DNA from: a virus
Virus record (IMG/VR): IMGVR_UViG_3300033155_002072
Strand: one strand, 5' to 3'
DNA: 20,428 nt
Shown: positions 1-17,251 of the stretch, one piece after another
Layout of the letters: each line of letters opens with the position of its first letter
Position numbering within the stretch: position 1 is the stretch's first letter
Notes under the pieces: generated by a model
What the model was told of the DNA's origin: nothing
Seen by the model: only the letters and a program-made list of their open reading frames with translations
Database searches by the model: none
Made by a program: the position numbers and the translations under genes

Positions 1-453
1 CTTGCAGGCCTTGGCACCGTCTGCCATCGAGGGATTGCTCTCGGCGATCACCCGGCACTGCTCCATGGCTTCGGCGATAATATCCTCGCGGCTATCTCGG
101 GATGGCGGAAGGGCGGCCTGCTTGCCGGCGTCGAATCCCCTTTGGTAGGCAGCATTGAGCGACTGGTCCATCGTCCGGAGAGCGCTGTTATAGCCCCGTT
201 GGTAGCTCTGGCTAGTCGCGCGCTCCACCATCGCCTGGGACTCTCTCAGGCCCTGCTGGTACCCCGTCTGATGTGCCTCCTGTAGAGCGTTGCTCGAAGG
301 TGCGACTTGCAGGGCGTGGTCCCAGCCGCGTCGTGCAGCCTCAACTGCGACATCGGCACGATACTGCATAAGGGGGTCCTGTTCCTGCCCCCGTGGCACC
401 AGCTCCATGTATATCTGGCGAGCGAGCGAATCAAATCTAGGATCGTTGTACAC
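1..453 (-). CDS. Hypothetical protein with repeated (A/S)YQxGxxxG motifs (FliH/Yae1-like glycine repeats); runs off the left edge
   Basis: Manual translation from GTG at 453: MYNDPRFDSLARQIYMELVPRG...AHQTGYQQG...SYQRGYNS...AYQRGFDAGKQ..., open to position 1. Overlaps the stop of the 437-1111 gene. Not in the supplied ORF track. Confidence 0.75.
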   Translation of the reverse strand, partial: MYNDPRFDSLARQIYMELVPRGQEQDPLMQYRADVAVEAARRGWDHALQVAPSSNALQEAHQTGYQQGLRESQAMVERATSQSYQRGYNSALRTMDQSLNAAYQRGFDAGKQAALPPSRDSREDIIAEAMEQCRVIAESNPSMADGAKACK

Positions 454-1111
454 GGTAGAAGTCGACTTCGTCTTCGTTGTTTTTCTCAAAGATGGCCTGC
501 TGCCGCTTAGAGAGCCCGGTTACATTATAGACTATATCCTGAGGATATCGTGCAATCATGCGGGCGACGAAATCAAATCGTTCGCCGGCTTCCTGGCGTT
601 TCGCCTGTTTTCGAGACAGGCCAATCGATCCCCCCGCAATAGTCTTGAAGGGCTCTATACCTCTTCCCATGTACACGGGCCTCCCGGTCTCCGGGTCCAA
701 TTCGGTTGGACGCCCAAGCGCCTTGAATCTCACCGACTCTTCGCTGGGTGGCTCAGTGCCCACGGCCCCCCATCCTTTCCTCGCACCGGCAGTAAGCTGT
801 TCCCTGGCCCGCTGGTCTTTGAGAATGCCGCCCGGCGTAAGCGCATCAAGGTCGCCCAATTCGTCCCTCAGGGCCGAAACTCTTTGGTTCATCCGGGCAA
901 TCGAACGCTGCCATTTCTTGATCTCGCAAATTAGGTCGTCCTGCGCATCATCCGTTAACCCCACTCCTGCCTCTAGGCGCTCGCTCGCTTCCTCCGCCTT
1001 CCTCTGGAGGAAGGGGATGCCCATTTGGACATCGGACTCGATCTTCTCAATGGACCTGCGGATCTCGACCTTGCGGTCGGAGACGTGGGCTTGAAGGGTT
1101 TTAGGGGGCAT
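437..1111 (-). CDS. Hypothetical protein with N-terminal coiled coil
   Basis: 224-aa ORF in a tightly overlapped leftward operon; helical, charged composition; no recognised motif. Confidence 0.75.
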   Translation of the reverse strand: MPPKTLQAHVSDRKVEIRRSIEKIESDVQMGIPFLQRKAEEASERLEAGVGLTDDAQDDLICEIKKWQRSIARMNQRVSALRDELGDLDALTPGGILKDQRAREQLTAGARKGWGAVGTEPPSEESVRFKALGRPTELDPETGRPVYMGRGIEPFKTIAGGSIGLSRKQAKRQEAGERFDFVARMIARYPQDIVYNVTGLSKRQQAIFEKNNEDEVDFYRVQRS

Positions 1112-1760
1112 CGAACACGTCCTCTTCGTCGAAGAGCTTCTGAACGCCTTTCTTGAGCTTGATGGCGTCGGACTTCTTCTTCGCGGCTTCTACCGCAGGG
1201 TAGTCAGCGATTTCCACCTTGTGCTTTTGGCTAGGGTGGGCGGCATCGATCTTGTCTGCGATGAACTCGAATCCGTCGGAGATCTGGACCTGCTGCTCGA
1301 TAACCGCCTTGCCAAGCCTGTTTATCTTGGCCTCGGCGCTCTGTAAGCGAATCTCAATGGTCTCGCTGGATGTACCCACGGCCCTGATGACGGGCTCGGC
1401 CTCTTTTCGTATCTCATCGTCCGAGGGGGACCTCAGGGCCGTCCAGATGCCTACGCCGCCACCAGATGTGACGATGGCCACCAGGAAGACCACCAGGCGT
1501 GTAAATGCCCTTGAGCGACGTGTGCGCTCCTCGGAGCCCTCCACCTGGAGGTCCAGTAGGCGCTGGATCGCCTCTTGCTGGACCTCCATCCGCTTTTGCT
1601 GGCTGTCGGTCCGGTTTGATTGCTCCCGGGTTCGGGATCGGACGACGTCAGTTTCCCGCTCAACGGCCTGTAGAATCCTCTGATTCTCCTCGCATACGCG
1701 GGCAACCTCGACCTTAATTGCCCGCGTAAGCGTGCTCTCCAGGTCCGTAAGGTCGGGCAT
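1101..1760 (-). CDS. Single-pass membrane protein with coiled coils on both sides of the TM segment
   Basis: 219 aa; hydrophobic stretch LVVFLVAIVTSGGGVGIWTAL preceded by basic RTRRSR; heptad-rich flanks; 11-nt overlap with the next gene. Confidence 0.75.
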   Translation of the reverse strand: MPDLTDLESTLTRAIKVEVARVCEENQRILQAVERETDVVRSRTREQSNRTDSQQKRMEVQQEAIQRLLDLQVEGSEERTRRSRAFTRLVVFLVAIVTSGGGVGIWTALRSPSDDEIRKEAEPVIRAVGTSSETIEIRLQSAEAKINRLGKAVIEQQVQISDGFEFIADKIDAAHPSQKHKVEIADYPAVEAAKKKSDAIKLKKGVQKLFDEEDVFDAP

Positions 1761-1780
1761 GGTAATATCTTATCACAGCA

Positions 1781-2011
1781 TCAGTAGCCCTTGATCATGG
1801 CCTCAAGGTCGTCACAGCCCCCAATATGATGTCCATCAATGAAGATCTGCGGCACAGTCATTCCCCTGCTCACTATCTGGCGCGCTACGTCCCTCTGGGC
1901 CCCTCGCGCCGTCTCCAGGTTGTAGACTGAGTAGTTGATGCCCATGCGGTCCATTATTCGCATCGCCCTGGTGCAGTACGGGCACCCTCTCTTGACGTAT
2001 ATCTCGTTCAT
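1781..2011 (-). CDS. grxC: Glutaredoxin (GrxC/Grx3-like, dithiol CPYC)
   Basis: From ATG at 2011: MNEIYVKRGCPYCTRAMRIMD...MTVPQIFIDGHHIGGCDDL. CPYC, TVPQIF and IGGCDDL are canonical glutaredoxin motifs. The track's longer 2317 start is not supported. Confidence 0.93.
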   Translation of the reverse strand: MNEIYVKRGCPYCTRAMRIMDRMGINYSVYNLETARGAQRDVARQIVSRGMTVPQIFIDGHHIGGCDDLEAMIKGY

Positions 2012-2123
2012 TAGGTCTCTCTTGCTGGCTGAGGTGGGGACACGTGGGGACGCCCAGGCCCAGCAGCGCTCCAAGTGCCACAAGGCACGCCCTGAGGGCC
2101 ATTCGCGGGCGATCCATCGTGAA

Positions 2124-2152
2124 ATTGTACCATTCGCGGCGATAGGTGGCAC
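2124..2152 (-). promoter_or_regulatory. Putative sigma70-type promoter P2 (GTGCCA-17-TACAAT, extended -10 TGn)
   Basis: Minus strand reads GTGCCA N17 TACAAT with TGG directly before the -10; predicted +1 falls at about 2117. Confidence 0.55.
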
Positions 2153-2315
2153 CAGGGGCCCAGGCGTACAGCCATGGGCCTGGGCTTCCTGGTGCCTGCG
2201 TCGCAAGGGTCGAGTGAGAGTGGGTTTCGGGGCATAGTGGGACTGGGTGGGGGCTTTACGAAAGCGGCCTGAGAACCGTTTTGCCAAGCGCTCGCGCTGG
2301 TTTGTGCGCTTAGGC
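2148..2315 (-). ncRNA. Candidate structured non-coding RNA or long 5' leader
   Basis: Lies between promoters P1 and P2, has no convincing ORF, and contains the long hairpin GGCACCAGG-GCCCAGGC/GCCTGGGC-CCTGGTGCC (2148-2196) plus GCTTT/AAAGC (about 2253-2265). Confidence 0.3.
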
Positions 2316-2321
2316 AAAACG

Positions 2322-2351
2322 AGTTTAGCATCCGGCGTGGGATGCTGTCAA
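2322..2351 (-). promoter_or_regulatory. Putative sigma70-type promoter P1 (TTGACA-18-TAAACT, extended -10 TGn)
   Basis: Plus-strand TGTCAA at 2346-2351 and AGTTTA at 2322-2327; the minus strand reads TGC-TAAACT. Confidence 0.65.
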
Positions 2352-2400
2352 GGCCAGTCAGGGATCACTAGTTAGATACTCTCTGAGGGATATGACTGGT

Positions 2401-2428
2401 GAGTACGGTAATACCTGTTACGGTACTC
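2401..2428. other. dif/Xer-like recombination site candidate (11-bp arms, 6-bp spacer)
   Basis: GAGTACGGTAA-TACCTG-TTACGGTACTC; the arms are inverted repeats with one mismatch and inner TAA/TTA flanking a 6-bp asymmetric core. Confidence 0.55.
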
Positions 2429-2492
2429 GGCGCTTCTGCCTCACCTATCTCTCGACCATTCGCCGGTGAATACCCGGTAAGGAAAACGAAAC

Positions 2493-3251
2493 ATGATGAA
2501 CATCGATATCAATGAACTCTCTCCTGCTCAACTCAAGGCTCTGGTGGAAGCCGGACTGATCAATGTCGGAGGTACGAGCGTCGCTCCAACGGAGACTGGA
2601 AAGCGCCGAACGCGATCGGATTCGGACGAGAATCTCGCGAAGAACTACTTCGATGCCAAGTTCTCGACCTACCATCTTGCGGTCAAAGAGAAGAACCCTA
2701 TCACCCGGCTCATCCTCTGCGATAAGCTCTGGAGTGAGGTAAAGCAGGATATTCGGCGATTGGCTGGATATGATGGGGTCGACTCCAAGGGTAAGCCTAA
2801 GTATAACCCCGCAAAGCACCCCATTGGCCTTAGGCACAAGGATCACCTGCCTACCGACTGGGCTGATGACGATACAAGGGGTAAAATTGAGGGTAAGCGG
2901 GTCAAGCTCTCGAACGGAATCAGGAGTTTTGGCCAGAGCGGCCCTAACTCTTACCCGTTGGTCGCTAAGCTCGTACTTGGAGAGGCGACCGATGAGGATC
3001 GGCAGATCGTCATCAATGCCCCCAACAATATCCGAGACGCGATTGTCGCTCTCTTGGCTGGAGAGGCCCATGACGATGGGTCTCTCCTCTATGCTCAGAA
3101 GGGTTCCAGGGGCGACGATCGGTATGCCTTTGATCCCATGACCAACAAAGAAGGGGTGCGAAAGCGTATGCACGAAAGCATCGGTGGGACTAAGGCAAAG
3201 AGCGAGCAAGCCCCTGAGGGTGTAGACTCTGCCAGCATCATGGCGTTCTAG
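2493..3251 (+). CDS. Hypothetical protein, first gene of the rightward arm
   Basis: 252-aa ORF with AAGGAA RBS, followed by two terminators; no recognised motif. Confidence 0.85.
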   Translation: MMNIDINELSPAQLKALVEAGLINVGGTSVAPTETGKRRTRSDSDENLAKNYFDAKFSTYHLAVKEKNPITRLILCDKLWSEVKQDIRRLAGYDGVDSKGKPKYNPAKHPIGLRHKDHLPTDWADDDTRGKIEGKRVKLSNGIRSFGQSGPNSYPLVAKLVLGEATDEDRQIVINAPNNIRDAIVALLAGEAHDDGSLLYAQKGSRGDDRYAFDPMTNKEGVRKRMHESIGGTKAKSEQAPEGVDSASIMAF

Positions 3252-3265
3252 TATATCAGGACGCC

Positions 3266-3317
3266 GCGCCCCCCTCGGGGGGCGCTTTTTTTCGGCCTGC
3301 TTCGGCGGGCTTTTTTT
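3266..3317 (+). terminator. Two tandem intrinsic terminators
   Basis: GCGCCCCC-CTCG-GGGGGCGC-T7 (3266-3292) directly followed by GCCTGC-TTCG-GCGGGC-T7 (3295-3317). Confidence 0.9.
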
Positions 3318-3388
3318 GTGCCTCAAGAATGAGGCGACCCGCCATTGGGAGACAAGTCGGCATACGGACTGTCTCCGCAAGATCAATC

Positions 3389-3435
3389 CCATTCGCCGCG
3401 GCTGGCCCATTCGCGGCGAATGGCACGAATGGGCC
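3389..3435. repeat. Cluster of four CCATTCG motifs (two direct, two inverted)
   Basis: CCATTCG at 3389 and 3407; CGAATGG at 3417 and 3426; 3407-3423 is the palindrome CCATTCG-CGG-CGAATGG. Confidence 0.7.
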
Positions 3436-3444
3436 AGGATAGTC

Positions 3445-4005
3445 ATGAAAGCAACAATCGGAAACATTCTGAAGTCTAAGGGGGCAATGGCCCCTGCGCT
3501 CCAACCCTCGAACACTGAGAGCAACCGAGTCTCCCGCGCCAATCGCCGTGGAAGGGCACATCGTAACTCCGATCGGATGCGTACCGAGGAGCTAATACGC
3601 ATGATTGAGGAGGCGGAGTATAGCGGGACTGGCGGCCTGGTAGGTCAAGACGTGGAATATGCCGATACTCGACCAGAGGAGGTGAAGGCGGAGTACCGGG
3701 CCAGTCGGCATTGTTCGGTCTGCGGCGAAAAGGGGCACGACAAGCGCAACTGCCCCAAGGTCACCGGACCCATGAGGGAACACTTCGAGATGATGAGGGA
3801 CAGGGTCATCTCAATGGCTCCAGATTCAGTGAGTTCTTTGATTGATGAGCTGAGGGAGGTAAAAAACGGGTCTACGTCAGCCCCTGTTTGGACCGAGCTG
3901 ATGAATCGGCTGGGCGGAGATAACATATGGGTGCGAGAGTATTGCGCAGTAGAGTATATGGACGAAACAGTATGGGCCGTTTGGCTCAGGAACGTAATCA
4001 GGTAG
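3445..4005 (+). CDS. CCHC zinc-knuckle-containing protein
   Basis: Start MKATIGNIL after AGGAT at ATG 3445 (the track's 3316 start lies in the terminator); CSVCGEKGHDKRNC = C-x2-C-x4-H-x4-C at 3712-3753. Confidence 0.8.
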   Translation: MKATIGNILKSKGAMAPALQPSNTESNRVSRANRRGRAHRNSDRMRTEELIRMIEEAEYSGTGGLVGQDVEYADTRPEEVKAEYRASRHCSVCGEKGHDKRNCPKVTGPMREHFEMMRDRVISMAPDSVSSLIDELREVKNGSTSAPVWTELMNRLGGDNIWVREYCAVEYMDETVWAVWLRNVIR

Positions 4006-4020
4006 AAGGAGAAAAGACCA

Positions 4021-4101
4021 ATGAGAGAAGATACAAAGATTTTTCTGGCCATGTTGGCATTCGGTGCATTCATGGGGCTTTGCGTTGGCAATGCCCTTTA
4101 G
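4021..4101 (+). CDS. 26-aa hydrophobic small protein
   Basis: AAGGAG RBS, then MREDTKIFLAMLAFGAFMGLCVGNAL*; below the ORF-track cutoff. Confidence 0.6.
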   Translation: MREDTKIFLAMLAFGAFMGLCVGNAL

Positions 4102-4118
4102 CATGGAAGGAGTAAGCG

Positions 4119-4208
4119 ATGACTGCACTGCTACTCATGAAAACCTTCCCTGGGGCCGCCGAGAAACTCCGGTGGCCCCTCATTTTTGTCGCACTGTCGG
4201 GGATGTAA
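4119..4208 (+). CDS. 29-aa hydrophobic small protein
   Basis: AAGGAG RBS, then MTALLLMKTFPGAAEKLRWPLIFVALSGM*. Confidence 0.55.
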   Translation: MTALLLMKTFPGAAEKLRWPLIFVALSGM

Positions 4209-4241
4209 TCCCTTGCATTTACAATAACCAAGGGCTAAATA

Positions 4242-4604
4242 ATGAATATGCGACTTCTCAGAACAATTCATGAGCTTGAAAAAGAGGGAATCCCCCTATA
4301 CTACCTGTCGAGCTTTCCCGCCGGCGTCGCAGTCGGCACGTATGCCGACTTAGTGGACGCAACGATAAGCGTGGTGGACGAAGCCCACCACGGGCACGTC
4401 ATTGTCGCCTGGTGCAACGGAGTCCCCAACTTGATTGGAGTCGATGTGATACACCGACCCGAGCGCCTGGACCAAACAGTCATCGTGGGCGGCAAGTGGC
4501 CGATCAACATCGCCTCCTACGCCCACTACGGCCCCCAGCGGTTCATGCAGGGATGGGAAACATATAAGAATGCGTGCCGGCAAATGCCCAGTGCGTTCGC
4601 CTAA
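4242..4604 (+). CDS. Hypothetical protein
   Basis: 120-aa ORF with a globular-looking composition, followed by a terminator. Confidence 0.75.
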   Translation: MNMRLLRTIHELEKEGIPLYYLSSFPAGVAVGTYADLVDATISVVDEAHHGHVIVAWCNGVPNLIGVDVIHRPERLDQTVIVGGKWPINIASYAHYGPQRFMQGWETYKNACRQMPSAFA

Positions 4605-4628
4605 AAAAAGCAACAGAGAGAGAAGTCG

Positions 4629-4652
4629 AGGCCCCTTGAGGGGCCTTTTTTT
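4629..4652 (+). terminator. Intrinsic terminator
   Basis: AGGCCCC-TTGA-GGGGCCT followed by a T-run. Confidence 0.85.
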
Positions 4653-4657
4653 ATGGA

Positions 4658-4978
4658 ATGAAACAGTACATCGAGATCGGTGAGCAGGAACTGCGAGATG
4701 CAGTCACCGAATACCTAGAAAAGAAGGGCATCAAGTTGAGCCCTGATCATACTATCGAAATCTTTGATGGATGCGCCACCGTCATGCTGAAGGATGGCGA
4801 TGGACCAAGTCTGAAAGATGCGATGAGAAAAGTTGTTCTCGCGACCGCGGAAACACTCAACATAAGACACCTAAGATGTGTAGACGATGCAGAGTTCTTC
4901 AAGCTCTGCAACAAAATCATGGACAAGATGGGTCGATCTGAAATCGCCTATTACACTGAGAAGGATATCAAGCAATGA
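4658..4978 (+). CDS. Hypothetical protein
   Basis: 106-aa ORF, ATGA-coupled to the next gene. Confidence 0.8.
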   Translation: MKQYIEIGEQELRDAVTEYLEKKGIKLSPDHTIEIFDGCATVMLKDGDGPSLKDAMRKVVLATAETLNIRHLRCVDDAEFFKLCNKIMDKMGRSEIAYYTEKDIKQ

Positions 4979-5196
4979 CACCAATCCCACAAGCAGCAAT
5001 CGGCGAAGACTCTCAAATGATGATCGGGGAGTTTGTCCCCCAGTGCCTTAATCGTCTCAGTGGCCTTGAGGCCGAGATGGGCAACGGAATGAGCGAAGAA
5101 AAGGCGCTGTGTGTCGTGAACACATGCGTCGGCATTATTCAGACCGCCGCTCTACTTGAGGTAGCAGCAGCATTCAACAAGATGGCAGAGCGCTAG
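4975..5196 (+). CDS. Hypothetical protein
   Basis: 73-aa ORF with an ATGA overlap with the upstream gene. Confidence 0.7.
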   Translation: MTPIPQAAIGEDSQMMIGEFVPQCLNRLSGLEAEMGNGMSEEKALCVVNTCVGIIQTAALLEVAAAFNKMAER

Positions 5197-5210
5197 AAGG
5201 AGAACACGCT

Positions 5211-6725
5211 ATGTTTGGTAAAAAGCCCACACAAACCACCACCACCACCGAGTCCGTCAAGATGCCGGGAAGCAACATTTCCCGGCATGTCGATGTAAAG
5301 AACAAGAACATCATCTTGCCGCAGGACATGCTTCTGCCGCAAGCTGCTGCTCAGATTATTGAGCAGCACAAGCAAGATGAACTGGAGGTCTGCGTCGAGG
5401 AGGAGATTCACTCCTATCCTCTCGACGCAGCCTACGCGCTGAAGACTGTGCTTGACCAGAAGTACAGTGGACAGTCCCTGACGAAGAAGCAGGGAACGTT
5501 CGGGGCACAACCCCCTCAGATGCTCGGCGTGGTCGTCGACAAAGACGAGAAGGGTGATGATGTGACGGTCCAGGTGCCCTGGGGCACCATGACTGTCATC
5601 GGCATCGCCGGGACGATCGAGACGCGGCTGACCGTTACGAAGGAGGGAAACCCCATCATGACGCTTGTTGGCAACGTCAAGCGTCGGGATGAGAAGAAGG
5701 TGCATGAACTGGCCCAGCAAGTCAGGGATATGTGCAAGAACAACTCCATCTACCGCAACTGCGCACTGGAGATTAGTTTCCCCAAGTGCGATTGGAAGGA
5801 CGTGGCGCTGACGGATTTCAATCCGAAGTTCCTTGACCTCACCAATGTCAAGCCAGATGAGCTTATCTTCTCGGATAAGCTCATGAACTCGGTGGCACGG
5901 AACATCTTCGTGCCCATCCGCTACTCGGATGCCTGCAAGAGCATTGGCACCCCGCCTAAGCGGGGCACCCTGCTTGCTGGCCCCTACGGGACTGGCAAGA
6001 CCTTGACGGCGATGGTCGCCGCCAAGTATGCGGTGGCCAACGGCTGGACGTTCTTGTACATCAAGGACCCCAGTGACCTGCCCAAGGCTGTGAAGTTCAG
6101 TGAGCTTTATGGCCGAACGGTCATCTTCTGTGAGGATATCGACCAGGCGTTCCACGGAACGAATGGTCGACGTTCTGTGGAGGATGGCACCACGGAGATT
6201 GTAAACATCGCCGATGGCATTGAGAGCAAGCATCGTGAGTTGATCATGGTGTTCACGACCAACCACGAAGAGATGATCGACAAGGCGATGCTCCGCACTG
6301 GTCGCATCGACTCTATCATCCGCTTCACCCCGCCTGACGCTGAGGCTGCACAAAAGCTGCTTCGCCAGTACGGTCGGGGCCTCATCCCTGACTCGGAAGA
6401 CCTTTCGGAGGTGGGGACCGCCATGGATGGCTTCAAGCCATCTGACATCCGGGAGGCGGTGGAGCGAAGTAAGTACGCCGCGCTCGACCGTTCGTGCGGT
6501 GACCCGAACATCTCCATCTCTGCTCAAGACCTACTGGGGGCTGCCTTCGACCTCCAGGAGCACATTGAAATGGTGACCCCGGAGGTGCCAGACGACCGCT
6601 CTGACATCGAGAAGGCCGCTGAGACGCACGCTAACGTCCTCGGGGCGTGGCTGGCAACACCATCCGTCCCGTCCGATGACGACAGGAGCGACGCCCTAGT
6701 GGACGTGGACGCATTCCACGCCTAA
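5211..6725 (+). CDS. AAA+ ATPase, classic clade (FtsH/Cdc48/BCS1-like module) with an uncharacterised ~240-aa N-terminal region
   Basis: Walker A GPYGTGKT, Walker B VIFCEDID, sensor-1 VFTTNH, second region of homology DKAMLRTGRID; AAGGAG RBS. Confidence 0.92.
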   Translation: MFGKKPTQTTTTTESVKMPGSNISRHVDVKNKNIILPQDMLLPQAAAQIIEQHKQDELEVCVEEEIHSYPLDAAYALKTVLDQKYSGQSLTKKQGTFGAQPPQMLGVVVDKDEKGDDVTVQVPWGTMTVIGIAGTIETRLTVTKEGNPIMTLVGNVKRRDEKKVHELAQQVRDMCKNNSIYRNCALEISFPKCDWKDVALTDFNPKFLDLTNVKPDELIFSDKLMNSVARNIFVPIRYSDACKSIGTPPKRGTLLAGPYGTGKTLTAMVAAKYAVANGWTFLYIKDPSDLPKAVKFSELYGRTVIFCEDIDQAFHGTNGRRSVEDGTTEIVNIADGIESKHRELIMVFTTNHEEMIDKAMLRTGRIDSIIRFTPPDAEAAQKLLRQYGRGLIPDSEDLSEVGTAMDGFKPSDIREAVERSKYAALDRSCGDPNISISAQDLLGAAFDLQEHIEMVTPEVPDDRSDIEKAAETHANVLGAWLATPSVPSDDDRSDALVDVDAFHA

Positions 6726-6830: not shown

Positions 6831-6904
6831 GGACGTTTAGCTCAGTTGGTCAGAGCAGTCGGCTCATAACCGATCGGTCCTCGGTTCAAGCCCGAGAACG
6901 TCCA
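6831..6904 (+). tRNA. tRNA with CAT anticodon, most like tRNA-Ile2 (lysidine, reads AUA); CCA not encoded
   Basis: Acceptor GGACGTT/AACGTCC, D-loop AGCTCAGTTGGTCAGAGC, anticodon arm GTCGG-CT-CAT-AA-CCGAT, T-loop GGTTCAAG. Resembles Ile2 as recalled from Firmicutes; elongator Met is not excluded. Confidence 0.9.
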
Positions 6905-6989
6905 CAAAGGGCCAGCGGGCGGTGCCCTTGGCATGGAAATAACACCCGCAGTCGCGTCATGGGTCGTTGCCCAGGGGCGCGGCACCTAT

Positions 6990-7066
<77 letters not shown>

Positions 7067-8995: not shown

Positions 8996-9183
8996 GTGAA
9001 GAAGAAAAAGAACAGATCGTCGCGTATCTCCGCCGACGCGCCCGCCGCTACGTGGGAGCACTGGGGCCCGCGCCCGATCCATACGACAGCATCGGTGCGA
9101 CGCTCTACACCCTCAGTGCCGCGTTGATGGAATGCGCTGATGCAATCGAGAGCGGCGAGCACCGGAAGGATGGCGAAGAATGA
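8992..9183 (+). CDS. Hypothetical protein
   Basis: 63 aa, ATGA-coupled on both sides. Confidence 0.75.
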   Translation: MSEEEKEQIVAYLRRRARRYVGALGPAPDPYDSIGATLYTLSAALMECADAIESGEHRKDGEE

Positions 9184-9671
9184 CCGGAGAAAGTTACACG
9201 GACATGGACGGTAACCCCATTACCCTAGAGGAGCGGTGCCGAACGGAACCTGAGTGGGCGTCCTACAAGATCATGCATCTCCGCGCCGCGTTGGAGACGG
9301 CGAGACGAGACCGCGACGTATTGCTCGATCGGGTGATGTCGCACCGGAAGGAACGCGACGAGGCGCGCAGGGAGGAGCTTACCTCATTCTTTACGTTGAC
9401 GAACTGCGCCAACGCTATCGAAGGCGGCGAGCACCGGAAGGAGAACGAAAGAATGACAGACAAAGAGATCGAGGAGATTTTCAAGCAGTTGAATCAGGCC
9501 GTCGTCCAGCGATGGCTTAACAAGTACCCCCAGGGCCTTGATAGCGGTGCAGCCGCACTACGGCAGTTGTCGGGACTCCAATCGATCGTAGAGGAGTTGA
9601 AAGGCGACCTCATGGCCCAGCTGTCGGAGTTTCCAGAAAGTAAGGAGATTGAAGGCAATGCAGAAGATTAA
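9180..9671 (+). CDS. Hypothetical protein, probably a fusion of two small genes (internal start at 9453)
   Basis: 163 aa; an internal copy of the junction repeat with GAAGGAG RBS precedes an in-frame ATG at 9453. Confidence 0.7.
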   Translation: MTGESYTDMDGNPITLEERCRTEPEWASYKIMHLRAALETARRDRDVLLDRVMSHRKERDEARREELTSFFTLTNCANAIEGGEHRKENERMTDKEIEEIFKQLNQAVVQRWLNKYPQGLDSGAAALRQLSGLQSIVEELKGDLMAQLSEFPESKEIEGNAED

Positions 9672-10315: not shown

Positions 10316-10659
10316 CAATCATCACAGGAAAAGAAAAAAAGGACTACAAGATTGGCGCAGTCGGCATACAGCTTGACGAGGACGTCAAGGCTGAGCAACT
10401 GCTCCAGCAACAAAATGGCTGCATGAGCCTATATGTTGACCCGATGACAGGCATCGCTGCCCCAAAGCCGGGACCACAGCCATTTGCGCTGGCGATGTTT
10501 ATGGAGATGGCACAGGAGCTTGAGGCGCTCAAGAAGAGAATTGAAGAACTTGAAGACCTAATCGCCGGGACAAATCTGCAAGTCCCCGGTGTGACCGTCT
10601 GTGAACCCATGAGCGTCGAGGAGTTTCGAAAGTTGAGTGGAGAGAATGACAATGAGTAA
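10312..10659 (+). CDS. Hypothetical protein
   Basis: 115 aa, ATGA overlap, short coiled coil. Confidence 0.75.
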   Translation: MTIITGKEKKDYKIGAVGIQLDEDVKAEQLLQQQNGCMSLYVDPMTGIAAPKPGPQPFALAMFMEMAQELEALKKRIEELEDLIAGTNLQVPGVTVCEPMSVEEFRKLSGENDNE

Positions 10660-11519: not shown

Positions 11520-11773
11520 ACACTCACGAGTTTCACGTATTTGCAGAGCCAAGAAGGTGGGCGGTTCGCCACTTTAGGGTACGAGGGCTGGAAGCGCCTA
11601 CGCGACACTTCTTCATCGTTCACGACGGAGACAAACTTCACGACCAATCAAGGACGCATGCCTTCCAGGGGGAGTACCCGGAAGGTACCCTATCGAGCAA
11701 GTTGGACAGCGTTTACGATAAAGAATTCTCATCCTCAGTTACCGAGAAGCTACACGAGCTGATGCATAAATGA
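11498..11773 (+). CDS. Hypothetical protein
   Basis: 91 aa; AAGG before the ATG; TGATG coupling downstream. Confidence 0.65.
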   Translation: MSEMYEVDTHEFHVFAEPRRWAVRHFRVRGLEAPTRHFFIVHDGDKLHDQSRTHAFQGEYPEGTLSSKLDSVYDKEFSSSVTEKLHELMHK

Positions 11774-11940
11774 TGTCAGGAACAATCAAGTGGAATAGAC
11801 AAAAATTAAATAGGCTGAAGGAAGCAATCCGGGATGCAAGAATCGAAGGCCAAGAGGTCTTCACGTTTGAGGGACATACGCTAGTGCTGACCTATGCGCA
11901 CTACCTCGCACAACACCTTGACAGTCAGCTAGGAAAATAA
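11773..11940 (+). CDS. 55-aa conserved phage hypothetical protein
   Basis: MSGTIKWNRQKLNRLKEAIRDARIEGQEVFTFEGHTLVLTYAHYLAQHLDSQLGK*; TGATG overlap; not in the track. Confidence 0.75.
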   Translation: MSGTIKWNRQKLNRLKEAIRDARIEGQEVFTFEGHTLVLTYAHYLAQHLDSQLGK

Positions 11941-11942
11941 AC

Positions 11943-12323
11943 ATGGAACGAGTAAGACCAAGAGCTGGATCGTGCAAGTCTAAGCCCCTTCCTCTGGGAA
12001 GTGTCAGTGTCACAGTCTCTGTGAATACTAAGCTGATGGAGCACGCAAAAAAGATGACCTCAGACGAGATGGGCCAATGGGCAATCGTGCAAATTTTCAT
12101 GCAGCGCTACCTTGGTCGGCACTCTTCAGGTGATTGGGGAAATCTGTCTGAACACGACCAGCAGGCAAACATAGACGCCCTGGATAGCTCCGACCCTAAA
12201 AGGGTTATGAGTGTGTACGATGGCGTGGAGTACATAGAGGGGGTCCCAACAGATGATCGCATGTATGTAATCACGGAGTGGGACCGCAGCGTAACAACAC
12301 TGCTTTTCCCGGATGATTATTGA
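11943..12323 (+). CDS. 'Plasmid-related protein' family found in phage/ICE/plasmid early regions
   Basis: RHSSGDWGNL...DQQANIDAL...YVITEWDRSVTTLLFPDDY signature. Confidence 0.82.
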   Translation: MERVRPRAGSCKSKPLPLGSVSVTVSVNTKLMEHAKKMTSDEMGQWAIVQIFMQRYLGRHSSGDWGNLSEHDQQANIDALDSSDPKRVMSVYDGVEYIEGVPTDDRMYVITEWDRSVTTLLFPDDY

Positions 12324-12367
12324 GGACCTGTACAATTAAAGCCAGCGAATGGCAGAAAGGGGCAAAC

Positions 12368-13048
12368 ATGGGAGACCTAACCAGCATAGACCTATTGGAC
12401 AGAAGTCGATTATCGGCAGGGAAACGCTACTATGCGTTCCGCATGGACTTCTCGGCAGCCACTCAAGAAACTTTGAATCAAGGAATACAGGATGTTTCAC
12501 ACGCATGTTCGTTATCCAATCCAAATATACCGTGGGCACTGGGTGATGGTTGCATTCTGGTTGTTTACAAAGTGCTGGAAACCTTCTTGCAAGAAGCCAA
12601 CCAACTTCGGGAGAGGCTGACGTTCCCTTATTCTTGCGAGGGGGTAACATTCTCTGCTTATGGGTTCGATGATTTGCCAGACCTTTCCTGGCACAACCCA
12701 GAATCCATCGCCTCGCCTCGCGGCGAAGGTGAAGATGAAGATGAAGATGAAGATGAAGATGAAGATGAAGATGAAGATGAAGAGTACAACGAGGACAACC
12801 CCAAGCCACTGACCTGCGCCCACTGCGGTCACGACGTTGACCCAGATCAAGTGGCGGCATACGTCAAGTTTGATAGGGCCTACACTGGGACTCGTTATGA
12901 GGTCGATGAGGACGGTGATTACACCTTCTACGTGGACAGCTCAAATGCGGAACCAGAGGCCGCCAGCTTTGTCATTGAGTGCCCTAGATGCGGTGCAGAG
13001 GACGACGAAGATCTTTTGGAAGGGTGCTACAGAGTAAAGGATGAATAA
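12368..13048 (+). CDS. Hypothetical protein with acidic (ED)8 linker and C-terminal CxxC...CxxC zinc ribbon
   Basis: ATG at 12368 after AAAGGGG (the track uses TTG 12320); CAHC and CPRC motifs. Confidence 0.78.
   Translation: MGDLTSIDLLDRSRLSAGKRYYAFRMDFSAATQETLNQGIQDVSHACSLSNPNIPWALGDGCILVVYKVLETFLQEANQLRERLTFPYSCEGVTFSAYGFDDLPDLSWHNPESIASPRGEGEDEDEDEDEDEDEDEDEEYNEDNPKPLTCAHCGHDVDPDQVAAYVKFDRAYTGTRYEVDEDGDYTFYVDSSNAEPEAASFVIECPRCGAEDDEDLLEGCYRVKDE
12731..12778 (+). repeat. Perfect in-frame hexanucleotide microsatellite (GAAGAT)8
   Basis: Directly visible; flanked by the degenerate units GAAGGT and GAAGAG. Confidence 0.97.
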
Positions 13049-13430
13049 AGACCAGCAGAAAATATCAGACGCCTGGGAGAGTGGATACTGTAAAGATGCA
13101 GTTTCAGCCCTCTCAACGATTGGCTTCGGACCGGAAAACAAATCCGCTCGAATCTCATATATCCGGTCACATATCCATGAATGTGAGCGGTGCAAGATGG
13201 CCAATATGGTAAAGGGCATCGAGGGTGAGATAGCAGACCGGTTGGTATCACGTGGATATCCCACCGCAAAGATGCTGTTCAATGCCGGAGAGCCTTCACC
13301 ACTAGGCTATAACACGGCGGAATACGGGTCCGTGTTTTTTGAGGTCATTGATGAAATGCAGTTCAGCCGAGAGGAGATCGGTGACATTGTGAAGTTCATG
13401 GTATCTGTGAGAATGGGAAAGGAGGTATAA
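13041..13430 (+). CDS. Hypothetical protein with HxxxCxxC (zf-HC2/ZAS-like) motif
   Basis: IRSHIHECERCK; overlaps the upstream stop. Confidence 0.75.
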   Translation: MNKDQQKISDAWESGYCKDAVSALSTIGFGPENKSARISYIRSHIHECERCKMANMVKGIEGEIADRLVSRGYPTAKMLFNAGEPSPLGYNTAEYGSVFFEVIDEMQFSREEIGDIVKFMVSVRMGKEV

Positions 13431-13431
13431 A

Positions 13432-13575
13432 ATGCAAGACGATCGAGAAGAAATGATTGATGAAATCCACTTTGCCGAGAAGTCCATCATCCAGATGGAG
13501 CACAGGGCGAGAATGGCTAAGATGGCATCGGCTCTGGGAATCATGATGATCCTCATCATCCTGATGAACATGTAA
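13432..13575 (+). CDS. 47-aa small protein with C-terminal TM helix
   Basis: AAGGAGGT RBS; MQDDREEMIDEIHFAEKSIIQMEHRARMAKMASALGIMMILIILMNM*; not in the track. Confidence 0.7.
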   Translation: MQDDREEMIDEIHFAEKSIIQMEHRARMAKMASALGIMMILIILMNM

Positions 13576-13582
13576 AAATAGA

Positions 13583-13612
13583 CCGGGGAGGGTGTTGCCC
13601 TCCCCGGATTTT
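13583..13612 (+). terminator. Intrinsic terminator-like hairpin
   Basis: CCGGGGAGGG-TGTTG-CCCTCCCCGG-ATTTT. Confidence 0.75.
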
Positions 13613-13613
13613 C

Positions 13614-13625
13614 TGTGTACGGTAA
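13614..13625 (+). promoter_or_regulatory. Half-site matching the left arm of the dif-like site, 3 nt before the recombinase ATG
   Basis: TGTGTACGGTAA versus TGAGTACGGTAA at 2400-2411 (11/12 identical). Confidence 0.5.
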
Positions 13626-13628
13626 CCT

Positions 13629-14573
13629 ATGGGCGAGTCGATTGCACTAAAAGGGAATCTTTCTCAAGAGGAAGTCGCCAGACTGATTCAGTCTTCTCTA
13701 GGGAGACTGAAGCCGGAGACCCTAAGGTCTTACACTTACGCGCTGAACAACTTTGCGGAATACTGCAATTGCAGTGATCCAGGCTCGGCGATGCATATGC
13801 TTCTTTCTAAATCAAGGGGGGAAGCCAACTTCTTTGTTCTCGAATACTTAAAGCACTTGCAGGACCAAGGATTTAGTCCAAGCACGGTCAACGCTCGGCT
13901 CGCCGCCATCAGAGGCCGAGTGGCAGACGCTAGGATGGTCGGTCTGGTGGACTACCAGATCGATGTGAAGAGCCCTAAGAGAGAGACACTGAAGGACGTA
14001 CGAGGGCCAACGGAGGCGCAGTTCCAGCGGATACTGCGCTATGTGAAGAACCCTACGTCCAAAATCGAACATCGCACCCGAGCGATTGTTTACATGCTCG
14101 CATTCATGGCTCTGAGGAGAAATGAGATTGTCAGCCTAGATGTTGAGGATGTAGATGTTCATCGCAAGCAGATTATGGTCCTGCGAAAGGGCAAGAATGT
14201 GAAGGAACCAAAATCAGTTCCATCCATGACAATGGTGGCAATATCTGAGTGGATAAACATCTCTGGGCTCACCGATGGACCGCTGTTTATCAACTACGAC
14301 CCCACGGGGAAGGGGTCGAACAGGTACTCTGCGACCAGCCTTTATCGAATGATTCGGAAGATCGGGGATGAGTGTTCCATCAAGAACCTTCACCCACACG
14401 CATTCCGGCACTTTTCAATTACAGAGGCACTTGACGTAACAGGAGGCAGCACCAGGAAGGCTCAGAAGCATTCGGGCCACACCGACGCAAGAATGATCGA
14501 TGTTTACGAAGACGAACGAAAGGACGAGGCGCTCGAAGTTGCCAACTCCATTGAGCGTAAGTGGATAAAATGA
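13629..14573 (+). CDS. Tyrosine recombinase/integrase (XerC/XerD-like, with N-terminal SAM-like core-binding domain)
   Basis: ETLRSYTYALNNF (SAM-like); catalytic R (ALRRNE), K (LRKGK), HxxR (HPHAFRH), H (SGH), Y (IDVYED). No arm-binding N-terminal extension is apparent. Confidence 0.95.
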   Translation: MGESIALKGNLSQEEVARLIQSSLGRLKPETLRSYTYALNNFAEYCNCSDPGSAMHMLLSKSRGEANFFVLEYLKHLQDQGFSPSTVNARLAAIRGRVADARMVGLVDYQIDVKSPKRETLKDVRGPTEAQFQRILRYVKNPTSKIEHRTRAIVYMLAFMALRRNEIVSLDVEDVDVHRKQIMVLRKGKNVKEPKSVPSMTMVAISEWINISGLTDGPLFINYDPTGKGSNRYSATSLYRMIRKIGDECSIKNLHPHAFRHFSITEALDVTGGSTRKAQKHSGHTDARMIDVYEDERKDEALEVANSIERKWIK

Positions 14574-14983
14574 TCCGGCACATTGTTTCCGGAGACAGAC
14601 GGGGTGCTGAGAATGGCTCCCAAAGAGCAGTGAGCGACTTTAACTCAAGAATGGGATATGACTCTGTTCAGTTCACCTGCATTGGTGACGACATGCATTT
14701 CGAGAAAGTCATTGACTTGGGTGACGGTTTGGTTATATTTTCCAAGCTGTCATCACATGGTGTGGCACAAATTCGGAGAATGGCTGAGGCCAGAGGAAAG
14801 CCTGTTACGGTTTTTGATTTCGACCAAGAAACAACCCTGTATGAGCTTGCTGCGTGGATCAGCGAAAACAAAATAGAAACCCTATCTGTGCTTGGACTGA
14901 AAGAGTCTGCATGCACAGGAACAGAAGAGAAGGTTTTCAGGTCCGTAGTGGATCTGTTCGGTCTGTCTCAGGTTGTACCCTGA
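14570..14983 (+). CDS. Divergent SLOG-superfamily protein (YpsA/putative molybdenum-carrier-like)
   Basis: HIVSG...G, DGLVIF, ARGKPVTVFD, AAWISENKIETLSVLGLKES parallel the recalled pattern IISGGQTG, DGTLIF, GKP, WL..I.VLNVAGPRES; ATGA-coupled to the recombinase. Confidence 0.7.
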   Translation: MIRHIVSGDRRGAENGSQRAVSDFNSRMGYDSVQFTCIGDDMHFEKVIDLGDGLVIFSKLSSHGVAQIRRMAEARGKPVTVFDFDQETTLYELAAWISENKIETLSVLGLKESACTGTEEKVFRSVVDLFGLSQVVP

Positions 14984-15002
14984 GACTCAAAGGAGAAAGC
15001 AA

Positions 15003-15599
15003 ATGGCAGTAGAAAGAGACAAACTTAACCAAATCATCAACATGAAAGAGCAGGAGCTTCAGCGTGAGATCGCTATTGCGACTGTCCGAGAGAATATGGA
15101 TGAGCCCATCGGGGCAGTCCTAGACCAGCTTGGCAACATTAGCTCTGAGTACCAGTCGGCACTGTCAGGAATGAGCTGGAGAGACATTCTGATGGCAGTT
15201 GTTGCCGAAGGCTCTGCAGACGATGTAGAGGTCGGCGTGGATGACGCGATCATTGTCGCAAGCGATCCGGATGAGGGGGAATGTGAGCAGGAGGAGGCCG
15301 AAGCTCCTAAGCCGAAGAAGAAGTCTAAGCGGAGCGGTCGAAAGCCTCCTCCCCGCACCAAGGCGAAGCCCGATGTGGATGACTTTGACTCGCAGATCCT
15401 CTGTGCTGTGAATGAGTTCAAGGACTTCACAGATGACAAAGGGAACACCGGAGCCTCGATGGGAGCGGTCCTGGACGCCCTGGGTCCAGACTGTGAGGCC
15501 TCGGCATCCAAGGTCCGCGGCGCGCTCAACCGGCTTGTGGAGCAGGGTCACATTACCAAGAGAGGCTCTACTCGTAGCACAAGGTACCTCGGAAGATAG
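15003..15599 (+). CDS. Putative nucleoid-associated DNA-binding protein with C-terminal winged HTH
   Basis: AAGGAG RBS; N-terminal coil, acidic then K/R/P-rich linker (PKPKKKSKRSGRKPPPRTKAK), wing motif LNRLVEQGHITKRGSTRSTRY. Confidence 0.78.
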   Translation: MAVERDKLNQIINMKEQELQREIAIATVRENMDEPIGAVLDQLGNISSEYQSALSGMSWRDILMAVVAEGSADDVEVGVDDAIIVASDPDEGECEQEEAEAPKPKKKSKRSGRKPPPRTKAKPDVDDFDSQILCAVNEFKDFTDDKGNTGASMGAVLDALGPDCEASASKVRGALNRLVEQGHITKRGSTRSTRYLGR

Positions 15600-15606
15600 T
15601 TGGAGT

Positions 15607-15633
15607 GCCGGGGGCGAAAGCCCCCGGCTTTTT
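15607..15633 (+). terminator. Intrinsic terminator
   Basis: GCCGGGGGC-GAAA-GCCCCCGGC-TTTTT. Confidence 0.9.
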
Positions 15634-15637
15634 AATC

Positions 15638-16015
15638 ATGATAAGCGAATCTATTTGTAACTACTGCAGCGAGCCCAGAACTATCAACGAGATTTCTACG
15701 TTTGTTCAACTGAGCAAGCCAGAGTGCAAGGTCATTGTCACTGAGCTTGTTGAGCTTGGGCGACTGGATAAGAGCGGAAAGGCCAAGGGGACGCGATATT
15801 GTCGTCCTACGCTCAGCGACCTTGAACGTGCCGTCCGCTCGGTGTCAGACCGCTGGTATCCAGTGCGCGAGTTTTGCCTTGAGGTGTTCAAGGCCATGGA
15901 GGGGTCAGAGATCGCCCCCATCACAATCGTCATGGCCCTCCCAAAGCTCTGCCAAGATGGCCACGCCCTGGCGAAGCTAAACCTGGAAGGATCTCTGTAT
16001 CGGGGCCGAGGTTAG
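15638..16015 (+). CDS. Winged-HTH protein, motif-paralogous to the upstream gene
   Basis: RTINEISTFVQLSKPECKVIVTELVELGRLDKSGKAKGTRY. Confidence 0.75.
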   Translation: MISESICNYCSEPRTINEISTFVQLSKPECKVIVTELVELGRLDKSGKAKGTRYCRPTLSDLERAVRSVSDRWYPVREFCLEVFKAMEGSEIAPITIVMALPKLCQDGHALAKLNLEGSLYRGRG

Positions 16016-16027
16016 GGAAATTGACAG

Positions 16028-16444
16028 TTGCCTCAAATCGACCACGAAAACAAAACTATAAAATTCAATAACCATCGCGAGTTCTCTGCCATTGTCAGCA
16101 TCCTGGAGCACCCGTTCCGACACAGTGTCCAGGGTATCTACGATCATCTAAGAGAGGAGTTCGGAGAGTTCGAGGGTTATCAGCCTGCGTACTTGAGGAA
16201 CCGGATGCGCCGAAGGATTAAGTTCCTAGAGGATCTCAATCCATCCAAGGGCGTGAAGTATAAAGAGGAAGAGCTACTAGCGCTACGATGGACCATGCGC
16301 TTGGTAAGTCTTCAAGAAGAAACCATCTACTACCTGCTTAGCTTGGTGAATGACCTCTCATCCAAGAAAATCAGCCCATCAGATGCCCATGTGCTTCTCA
16401 CTGAGCCTCCTTGGCTGGAAAAAACTCTTAAGCCCAGGTTATAG
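16028..16444 (+). CDS. Hypothetical protein (TTG start)
   Basis: 138-aa ORF filling the gap; AGGG RBS-like sequence upstream. Confidence 0.7.
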   Translation: MPQIDHENKTIKFNNHREFSAIVSILEHPFRHSVQGIYDHLREEFGEFEGYQPAYLRNRMRRRIKFLEDLNPSKGVKYKEEELLALRWTMRLVSLQEETIYYLLSLVNDLSSKKISPSDAHVLLTEPPWLEKTLKPRL

Positions 16445-16450
16445 TATGGC

Positions 16451-17251
16451 ATGTCCAAGAATACGCTCAGGCTTCTGGGAGTTTTATCCGTGGGTGCGGC
16501 TGCGCTCGCATTGCGAAACAGCAAAGGAAGTGGCGTACCTAACTGCCCTGACATCAAGATCGGCGAGGATCAGCAATTGGCAGGGGTTCGTTTTCAAGAA
16601 GTTATGAAAGGCGGCGCATCCCCAGGGGATGCTGTTCCCATCGTATTCGCTTTTCACTCCAGAGGTAATAGCCCAAGCCAATACAGTAAGAGCGGATCGA
16701 TGTCCGCAATAGGACCCGCAAGGATGATCATCCCATATGGGATATATTCATCCCAAGACCTTAATGGTGGGAGCGCGGACAGTTACCACTTTTTCCCATC
16801 TGGGATTAAGAATATAATAAACAATAACTCAGAGAGCGAAGTCTTGGAGATATTCTCAACCACATCCAGATGGTTTGAGCCGTTCGCAAGAGCGATCGTT
16901 AGGTGCAGGCCATCTCCGCCAGACCGTCGACCCGTATTTACCGGATCTAGCATGGGTGCTCAAATGGCGTACCTCATGAACTCAACGATGCCGGGCTTCG
17001 CGGGGCTGACTGTTGCGGTCAATGGATATCTACCAAGACCTTTCTGGAACTCGAATATTTCACCCCAGGCGGCTCTTCACGGCCGGTCTGACACAACCGT
17101 CCCGTACAACTGGGACAAGGAGTACAATGAAACGATCATCAGCCAAGGAGCACCTGCCACGTTTGTCCCATATGATGCGGGCCATGGACTTACAAAGACT
17201 ATGTCGAGCGACTGGCAGTCTTTTATTCGCAACTATATTTCTGGCGCATAG
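16451..17251 (+). CDS. Alpha/beta-hydrolase esterase (phospholipase/carboxylesterase-like) with N-terminal hydrophobic anchor or signal
   Basis: FAFHSRG oxyanion loop, nucleophile elbow GSSMG, LHGRSDTTVP (Asp), AGHGL (His); N-terminus MSKNTLRLLGVLSVGAAALAL. Confidence 0.88.
   Translation: MSKNTLRLLGVLSVGAAALALRNSKGSGVPNCPDIKIGEDQQLAGVRFQEVMKGGASPGDAVPIVFAFHSRGNSPSQYSKSGSMSAIGPARMIIPYGIYSSQDLNGGSADSYHFFPSGIKNIINNNSESEVLEIFSTTSRWFEPFARAIVRCRPSPPDRRPVFTGSSMGAQMAYLMNSTMPGFAGLTVAVNGYLPRPFWNSNISPQAALHGRSDTTVPYNWDKEYNETIISQGAPATFVPYDAGHGLTKTMSSDWQSFIRNYISGA

Follow-up and report, generated by a model that had tools for sequence, protein, structure and literature searches.

The 28-bp element at positions 2401 to 2428 of the phage DNA analyzed here is a selected site which, judged from its counterparts in related phages, is read as two inverted 11-bp units, and it is not a chance hairpin. 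We tentatively interpret this conserved, dif-like site as a binding site for a protein, and the phage's own tyrosine recombinase is the candidate that we favor, without strong confidence, as the protein that recognizes it.

The window (the whole 20,428-nucleotide stretch of DNA that was analyzed) is part of the genome of an uncultured marine-sediment phage. More than 20 near-identical contigs from marine-sediment, subsurface, and hydrothermal-vent metagenomes carry copies of it, one of these contigs being 62.7 kb long, and a binned genome (G001) carries a 5.9-kb copy of window positions 12045 to 17936. Most of the window genes are without a known family. The AAA ATPase gene at 5211 to 6725 encodes a product that is 37 to 38% identical to the ATPase of N4-like phages, and behind it lie a tRNA-Met (CAT) gene at 6831 to 6905 and a tRNA-Arg (TCT) gene at 6990 to 7066, the latter of which is 90 to 95% identical to a tRNA-Arg of large Klebsiella and Aeromonas phages. 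Left of ~2011 the genes are read leftward, and from 2493 a block of small genes that extends for more than 17 kb is read rightward; the intergenic gap between the two blocks is 481 bp of noncoding DNA and contains the 28-bp element. The features at this strand switch are as follows:

1781 to 2011, minus strand: glutaredoxin gene, the first leftward gene (PF00462 at 3.7e-16; 76-aa gene call taken from relatives)
2322 to 2351, minus strand: sigma-70-like leftward promoter (TTGACA, 18-nt spacer, TG-TAAACT)
2401 to 2428, no strand assigned: 11-6-11 palindromic site (left arm 2401 to 2411, spacer 2412 to 2417, right arm 2418 to 2428)
2493 to 3251, plus strand: first rightward gene, 252 aa, of no known family, with two tandem terminators after it at 3266 to 3311

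The site consists of GAGTACGGTAA at 2401 to 2411, the asymmetric spacer TACCTG at 2412 to 2417, and TTACGGTACTC at 2418 to 2428. Apart from a single mismatch at position 7, at which both arms carry a G on the top strand, its arms are inverted repeats of each other. This confirms the first-pass annotation of this DNA, which had described an 11-6-11 inverted-arm site with one mismatch in noncoding DNA at the strand switch. The 11-6-11 geometry alone is weak evidence: the window contains four inverted repeats of this geometry with at most one mismatch, and the other three look like G+C-rich hairpins or lie in genes. Recurrence of the arm within the window, taken alone, is also weak evidence, with one extra arm (≤1 mismatch) observed versus 0.23 expected, a count that is reached by 20% of shuffled sequences; the 9-mer count is reached by 2 of 100 shuffles. 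The significance of the palindrome beyond chance comes from the comparative data, namely, its invariant arms, the dyad symmetry of the changes that the arms have undergone, and the extra arms of each lineage's own type.

Four lineages of this phage group have the site, always at the corresponding strand switch, and its 11-6-11 geometry and spacer length are invariant. The 28-mer is unchanged in 10 near-identical contigs, which are too close to the window to be informative, and it is identical in L028, a 1.3-kb contig with diverged flanks and diverged neighboring genes. In the lineage represented by L024, L025, and L045, whose recombinase is 68% identical to that of the window, the corresponding strand switch carries GAGTACGGTAA-CTCCAG-TTACGGTACTC; the arms of this site are identical to those of the window, 4 of the 6 spacer bases differ, and there is one further paired base on each side. 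When the intergenic region is aligned three ways, the arms are the longest invariant blocks, and the only other conserved blocks are TGTCAAG and a CT-rich run. The most distant lineage is that of L050 and L049 (recombinase 42% and ATPase 44% identical), in which GTGTACGATAA-GGCTCA-TTATGGTACAC occupies this strand switch, with a spacer that is 6 bp long and of unrelated sequence. Compared with the window, position 2 of the L050 arm is changed from A to T in the left arm and from T to A at the mirror position in the right arm, and position 8 is changed from G to A, with the mirror C changed to T. These two double changes preserve the dyad, and at position 7 both arms still have the G on the top strand. 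To date, the spacer is known in three variants and the arm in two. Because the arms are invariant, the spacer is fixed in length and free in sequence, the covariation is symmetric, and the asymmetry is conserved, the comparison points to selection on two inverted 11-bp units.

Several other elements lie near the site. The -35 hexamer of the leftward promoter is kept in all lineages (TGTCAAG is invariant in alignment A1 and also occurs in L050), and the same promoter element is found in L045. Just downstream of this promoter is a large inverted repeat at 2278 to 2320, which would be at the 5' end of the leftward transcript; the block TTGCCAAGCG is common to distant lineages, and the L050 counterpart of the repeat (L050:560-629) is a perfect 26-bp repeat with an 18-nt loop. 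A CCATTCG motif (2099 to 2140 and 2456 to 2463) is kept between the window and L028 in alignment A1, to the left of the site and 28 nt to its right, and is a separate candidate binding motif. On the rightward side, the tandem terminator-like hairpins at 3266 to 3311 are both strong, so that the first rightward gene looks like a monocistronic early unit, and transcription past these hairpins into the following genes may require antitermination. The flank of the L050 site resembles an inverted counterpart of the upstream flank in the window (GGATCAC ... TCTCT ... TGGT), a hint of inversion in which the similarity is short and CT-rich. A G-homopolymer-rich stretch to the left of the site (L045:4190-4215 and the start of L024) breaks the assemblies of the L024 lineage, and three contigs of this lineage begin ≤145 bp upstream of the site, mimicking a genome end. 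A physical genome end near the site, to which the starts of L024 and L025 just upstream of it might point, was rejected, since L045 reads through the G homopolymer, which marks these contig starts as an assembly break.

The arm also occurs apart from the full site, and in the window the extra copy lies directly in front of the recombinase gene. The features of this region are as follows:

13583 to 13607, plus strand: strong intrinsic-terminator-like hairpin (11 pairs, 9 of them G-C, with a T-rich tail), between the gene for a 47-aa membrane protein and the lone arm
13615 to 13625, plus strand: lone left-arm copy, which matches the arm at 10/11 positions (11/12 if the T in front is counted) and is separated from the recombinase ATG by 3 nt
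13629 to 14573, plus strand: Xer-type tyrosine recombinase gene, 314 aa (PF00589 at 1.7e-18), no Shine-Dalgarno sequence
14570 to 14983, plus strand: cpYpsA (SLOG) protein gene (PF12694 at 6e-8), overlapping the recombinase stop codon (gene call from the near-identical contig L014)
15003 to 15599, plus strand: gene for an ~200-aa protein with a conserved C-terminal winged-helix motif, the rival candidate binder of the site

The near-copy of the left arm that had been reported three bases before the recombinase start codon is indeed present, with TGTGTACGGTAA at 13614 to 13625 and the ATG at 13629, and the lone arm at 13615 to 13625 is invariant in 11 contigs of the window lineage. The accompanying suggestion, that the recombinase autoregulates through this half-site, fared less well. 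The position is specific to the window lineage, and no half-site is found in front of the recombinase ATG in L045, L024, L043/44, L046-48, or L049, the five other lineages or sister contigs that were checked; autoregulation through exactly that half-site is therefore not conserved. Among these, L043 and L046-48 represent two further lineages, with recombinases that are 67% and 57% identical, respectively. The window half-site is a lineage-specific instance of a more general pattern of one lineage-matched arm per genome: the window, L045, and L050/L049 lineages each have exactly one further arm, which matches their own variant and without exception has the left-arm form on the plus strand. In the L050/L049 lineage, this is an exact GTGTACGATAA at L049:8076 (L050:17405), within 162 bp of intergenic DNA ahead of a same-strand run of five genes, the fifth being the recombinase gene; the arm is 26 nt from the start of the first of these genes and 9 nt downstream of a TTGACA hexamer. 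In L045, an exact GAGTACGGTAA at position 10651 lies inside an 85-aa open reading frame, and the sister contig L024 has one mismatch there. Lone arms are situated in noncoding DNA just upstream of the recombinase gene or its operon in 2 of the 3 lineages. The number of extra arms expected by chance in the two lineages other than that of the window is about 0.02 and about 0.03, and the observed count is reached in 0 of 60 shuffles for either of them. Taken together, these copies argue that the 11-bp arm is a reiterated, recognized unit that changes together with the full site, which therefore favors a sequence-specific DNA-binding protein and disfavors a purely structural hairpin.

The recombinase is a simple, two-domain enzyme (PF00589 plus a weak SAM-like N-terminal domain), and its gene is the only recombinase gene seen. 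Its nearest solved structures are XerA of Pyrococcus and of Thermoplasma (PDB 4a8e XerA at 1e-28), followed by XerD, IntI4, and XerH. The catalytic R-K-H-R-H-Y set is intact, with R163, K187, H257, R260, H284, and Y293 invariant in 21 family members. Against the NCBIfam models, the protein scores 99 bits for XerA (cutoff, 220), 62 bits for XerC (cutoff, 335), 53 bits for XerD (cutoff, 330), and 47 bits for XerS (cutoff, 267); because it is below the curated cutoff of every Xer model, it is classed from its sequence as Xer-like and not as an equivalog of any of them. The order of a small membrane-protein gene (47 to 52 aa), a hairpin, and the recombinase gene is found in most lineages (window 13432 to 13628; L045, L043, and L046). 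The hairpin at 13583 to 13607 has a counterpart at this place in most lineages; none was seen in L049, in which the recombinase gene abuts a 126-aa gene. Across the lineages, the recombinase gene is mostly without a Shine-Dalgarno sequence, and its translation start is perhaps leaderless or coupled. The winged-helix protein gene is syntenic in all lineages, either after the recombinase gene or after the cpYpsA gene, and the C-terminal block of its product, which includes TRSTRY, is invariant or nearly invariant and has an acidic/basic linker in front of it. Just left of the window, the phage encodes a topoisomerase IB of the eukaryotic/poxvirus type (PF01028; L004:344-1663 and L005:6165-7484), and further left is a RuvC-like resolvase (PF02075); both are unusual neighbors for a tyrosine recombinase.

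Site and recombinase are both present in 3 of the 3 lineages that are readable for both (window, L045, and L050/L049), a co-occurrence that is confounded by shared ancestry. A recombinase retained by relatives that lack the site, which the first-pass annotation had named as evidence that would speak against its proposal, was seen in none of these three lineages. Among the three lineages compared, the arms change only in the one with the most diverged enzyme. The winged-helix protein co-occurs with the site just as well as the recombinase does. In 80 broader relatives (ATPase 33 to 42% identity, including N4-like phages), neither the site nor the recombinase is found within ±10 kb of the ATPase gene. 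When the proteins conserved across all three lineages are considered, the only plausible DNA binders are the recombinase and the winged-helix protein encoded at 15003 to 15599. The product of the first rightward gene was rejected as the binder, since it is 21% identical to its L045 counterpart and unalignable with that of L050, though the arms are identical or nearly so; this fast-evolving gene therefore cannot account for the invariant site. The 228-aa wHTH protein of the L049 operon was rejected as a general binder because the window encodes no homologue of it. The small leftward proteins of L045 show no homology to those of L050.

The choice between the two remaining candidates bears on the alternative that survives best, namely, that a dimeric phage regulator, most plausibly the 15003-15599 protein, binds the palindrome (in a leader or divergent-promoter region) and the lone arms and thereby controls early transcription, with the recombinase as a bystander. 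We regard this alternative as a strong rival, albeit a somewhat less probable one. The location of the site is consistent with it, since in all lineages conserved sigma-70-like promoter elements flank the site or lie just upstream of it, and the site is probably in the rightward leader, and in L049 the lone arm overlaps the TTGACA hexamer region 45 nt before the gene start; however, the distance from the site varies from 22 to 48 nt to the promoter hexamers and from 64 to 318 nt to the first gene, and there is a single palindrome instead of the usual multiple operators. The dyad-symmetric covariation of the arms is predicted equally by a dimeric regulator, but the asymmetry at position 7, which is conserved in all lineages, is unexpected for a homodimer. 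The winged-helix protein itself is a good candidate in that its gene keeps its place in every lineage and its DNA-reading head is nearly invariant, like the arms, yet its low-complexity acidic/basic linker resembles those of nucleoid-type proteins and not those of specific repressors. Finally, a half-site of 11 contiguous bp with arm centers 17 bp apart is typical of recombinases and would be unusual for a single wHTH; we infer from this contiguous unit, from the spacing, and from the arm asymmetry that the site fits the recombinase better than a winged-helix dimer. If the binder is nevertheless the winged-helix protein, then the site would be an early operator of an ordinary, if well-conserved, kind.

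If the recombinase acts at the site, as we tentatively favor, then the 28-bp element would be a lox/dif-like core site, with two 11-bp recombinase-binding arms around a 6-bp crossover spacer, and the acting enzyme would be the phage's single Xer-type tyrosine recombinase, encoded 11.2 kb downstream. Two recombinase monomers would bind the inverted arms, two sites would synapse, and strand exchange would take place at the edges of the 6-bp spacer. The likeliest partners would be sister or terminally redundant copies of the genome, and the outcome would be multimer resolution or circularization, with integration the less probable alternative. Such a reaction between identical copies is the more likely one, provided that the recombinase acts at the site, because each genome has a single site, which all of the assemblies cross without a break. 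The single extra arm of each lineage would bind a recombinase monomer and serve an accessory or regulatory function; that of the L050 lineage would be in the promoter region of the recombinase-containing operon.

Integration and inversion had also been proposed for this site, and neither gains support from the contigs or from the GTDB genomes, in which there was no sign of a junction, an attB, or an inversion. Over window positions 1 to 6000, contigs of four independent runs have no alternative joints or loose ends at the site, a result obtained at the contig level, at which rare junctions are invisible. All assembled relatives read through the site, and none has a rearranged joint, which contigs would rarely show. 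A GTDB-wide pattern scan of 185,579 species genomes gave no credible attB- or dif-like partner: there were nine matches versus about 3 to 6 expected, of which five are one rplC stretch of Clostridia and four are singletons. In many Clostridia (L033, L034, L038, L039, and L041), the ribosomal protein L3 gene (rplC) contains both 10-nt arm cores in inverted orientation with an 8-nt gap; this is a coincidence of coding sequence, and every pattern search for the site will pick it up. The one intergenic match, in an Acidobacteriota genome (G002), between an HD-domain gene and gpsA, was rejected as a host dif or attB because it is not conserved in its family; no counterpart with <3 mismatches was found in 40 genomes of that family, and the one in G027 is a 3-mismatch, chance-level match. 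In IMG/VR, the lineage-general site pattern has no matches, and the one match to the exact or degenerate site patterns (L002) was rejected as a chance occurrence in the coding sequence of an unrelated contig. Neither a matching attB nor a phage-host junction was found at the core, and the site is not assigned as an attP. Thus, the original proposal of a phage Xer-like system stands with respect to a selected dyad site of dif geometry, an enzyme of the Xer type, and the co-occurrence of the two, and it has gained no junction, attB, or inversion.

Compared with XerA/dif of archaea and XerCD/dif of bacteria, the phage site has the same 11-bp imperfect inverted arms, the same 6-bp spacer, and the same TAA/TTA inner ends (ATAA/TTAT in the L050 lineage). 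Xer-class enzymes act on two ~11-bp arms around a 6- to 8-bp crossover region, and the phage arrangement further resembles Xer/dif in having one site per replicon and a recombinase gene that is, as is often the case, far from the site (PMC5357621; PMC2958812). The best matches of the phage enzyme are XerA, XerC, and XerD, with the same catalytic residues. In contrast to Xer/dif, the enzyme is phage encoded and not chromosomal and scores far below the curated Xer cutoffs, and the arms of the site have nothing in common with the dif sequence beyond the inner bases. The phage site also heads an early operon instead of lying at the replication terminus, is accompanied by extra lone arms, and has no evident FtsK-type control.

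Phage-encoded simple tyrosine recombinases with a single palindromic site are known from Cre/loxP of phage P1, Dre/rox, and Vika/vox, in which the site is of the form 13-8-13 and lies within a few hundred base pairs of the gene. The system described here is like Cre/loxP in its simple phage tyrosine recombinase and single palindromic site, and its role would be circularization or multimer resolution. It differs from Cre/loxP in geometry (11-6-11 versus 13-8-13) and in the placement of the site relative to the gene (11.2 kb away versus adjacent), and it is not assigned to this type of recombinase/site pair; no specific sequence relationship of the phage recombinase to Cre was detected, with no Cre chain among the structure matches. 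In TnpI/IRS of Tn4430 (a core plus accessory direct repeats), P4 Int autoregulation, and the third element of FRT, extra motifs adjoin the core. The phage lineages resemble these systems in that the binding motif is reiterated outside the core, two of them having the extra arm just upstream of the recombinase gene or operon, but the phage extra arms are 7 to 17 kb from the core, and their position is not conserved between lineages.

A second alternative is that the palindrome works as a structure, either at the RNA level, as a stem-loop in the early-operon 5' leader (for stability, antitermination, or protein binding), or at the DNA level, as an extruded hairpin or cruciform. We consider this quite improbable. 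Folding of the top strand is predicted at -6 to -9 kcal/mol (z = -3 to -4), and both arm changes in L050 are compensatory for base pairing, but the sequence of the stem is over-conserved for a structure (9 of 11 positions), the mid-stem G-G mismatch is kept and not repaired, and the loop is not conserved. A rightward promoter-like element is probably upstream of the site in L045 and L050, and several terminators follow in the early region, so that an antitermination signal would make sense; however, lone arms, which are unable to fold, recur in every lineage. The ATPase gene that the phage has in common with N4-like phages, and the position of an inverted repeat where the early genes begin, also bring to mind the hairpin promoters of the N4 virion RNA polymerase. 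In N4-type hairpin promoters, of which there are about three copies, a stem of 5 to 7 bp encloses a 3-nt loop whose central base is a purine, and a G+C-rich heptamer is present (PMC4496689, PMC3715699). These features do not fit the phage site, which has arms of 11 to 12 bp, a conserved mismatch, and a 6-nt spacer of variable sequence, is present in one copy, and is not classed as a promoter of this type; the DNA that was read showed no gene for a virion RNA polymerase.

It is very unlikely that TACGGT (TACGAT/TATGGT in L050) is simply a -10-like hexamer, or the 11-mer a promoter of a phage-directed polymerase, serving both at the head of the early operon and before the recombinase gene, whose mRNA would be leaderless. 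In favor of this reading, all lone arms are oriented with transcription, the recombinase gene has no Shine-Dalgarno sequence, and in the window TGT precedes TACGGT at 2416 to 2424 (extended -10-like) and the TACGGT at 13618 has TTGCCC 17 nt before it and the recombinase ATG 5 nt beyond it. Against it, the -35-like spacing is inconsistent between copies (in L049, TTGACA is only 12 nt from TACGAT), the TG is lost in L045, and the L024 recombinase gene is preceded by TGCGGT and that of other lineages by nothing similar. In addition, the two occurrences of the motif in ~40 kb of the window lineage are fewer than a phage polymerase promoter would call for, and the strictly maintained inverted partner arm is left unexplained.

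Returning to the recombinase as the binder, several consequences would follow if it acts at the site. The uncultured sediment and vent phages of this group would carry a compact, host-independent recombinase/site pair, and this phage would meet the problem of multimers or circularization with its own Xer-like enzyme and not with that of the host. The defined arms and naturally variable spacer would be a ready-made family of orthogonal lox-like tools, and the lineage-matched lone arms would be an example of a recombinase motif reused for regulation. A more far-reaching version, which we consider unlikely, is that the phage has a self-contained system of the Xer/dif type whose recombinase doubles as a transcription factor, with the full site in the early-operon leader and co-evolving lone arms before the recombinase operon. 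If this is true, then one protein would couple genome resolution or circularization to the regulation of early genes and of itself.

The contigs that carry copies of the window also differ from it locally. An arm-like GGACGGTAACC at 9206 to 9216, which may well be there by chance, is ~13 nt inside the boundary of the first of two variable segments. These segments, at window positions 9000 to 9193 and about 11750 to 11825, are replaced or inserted in contigs that are otherwise 99.6 to 99.9% identical: L014 differs at 9000 to 9193, and L008 has ~650 extra bases near 11800.
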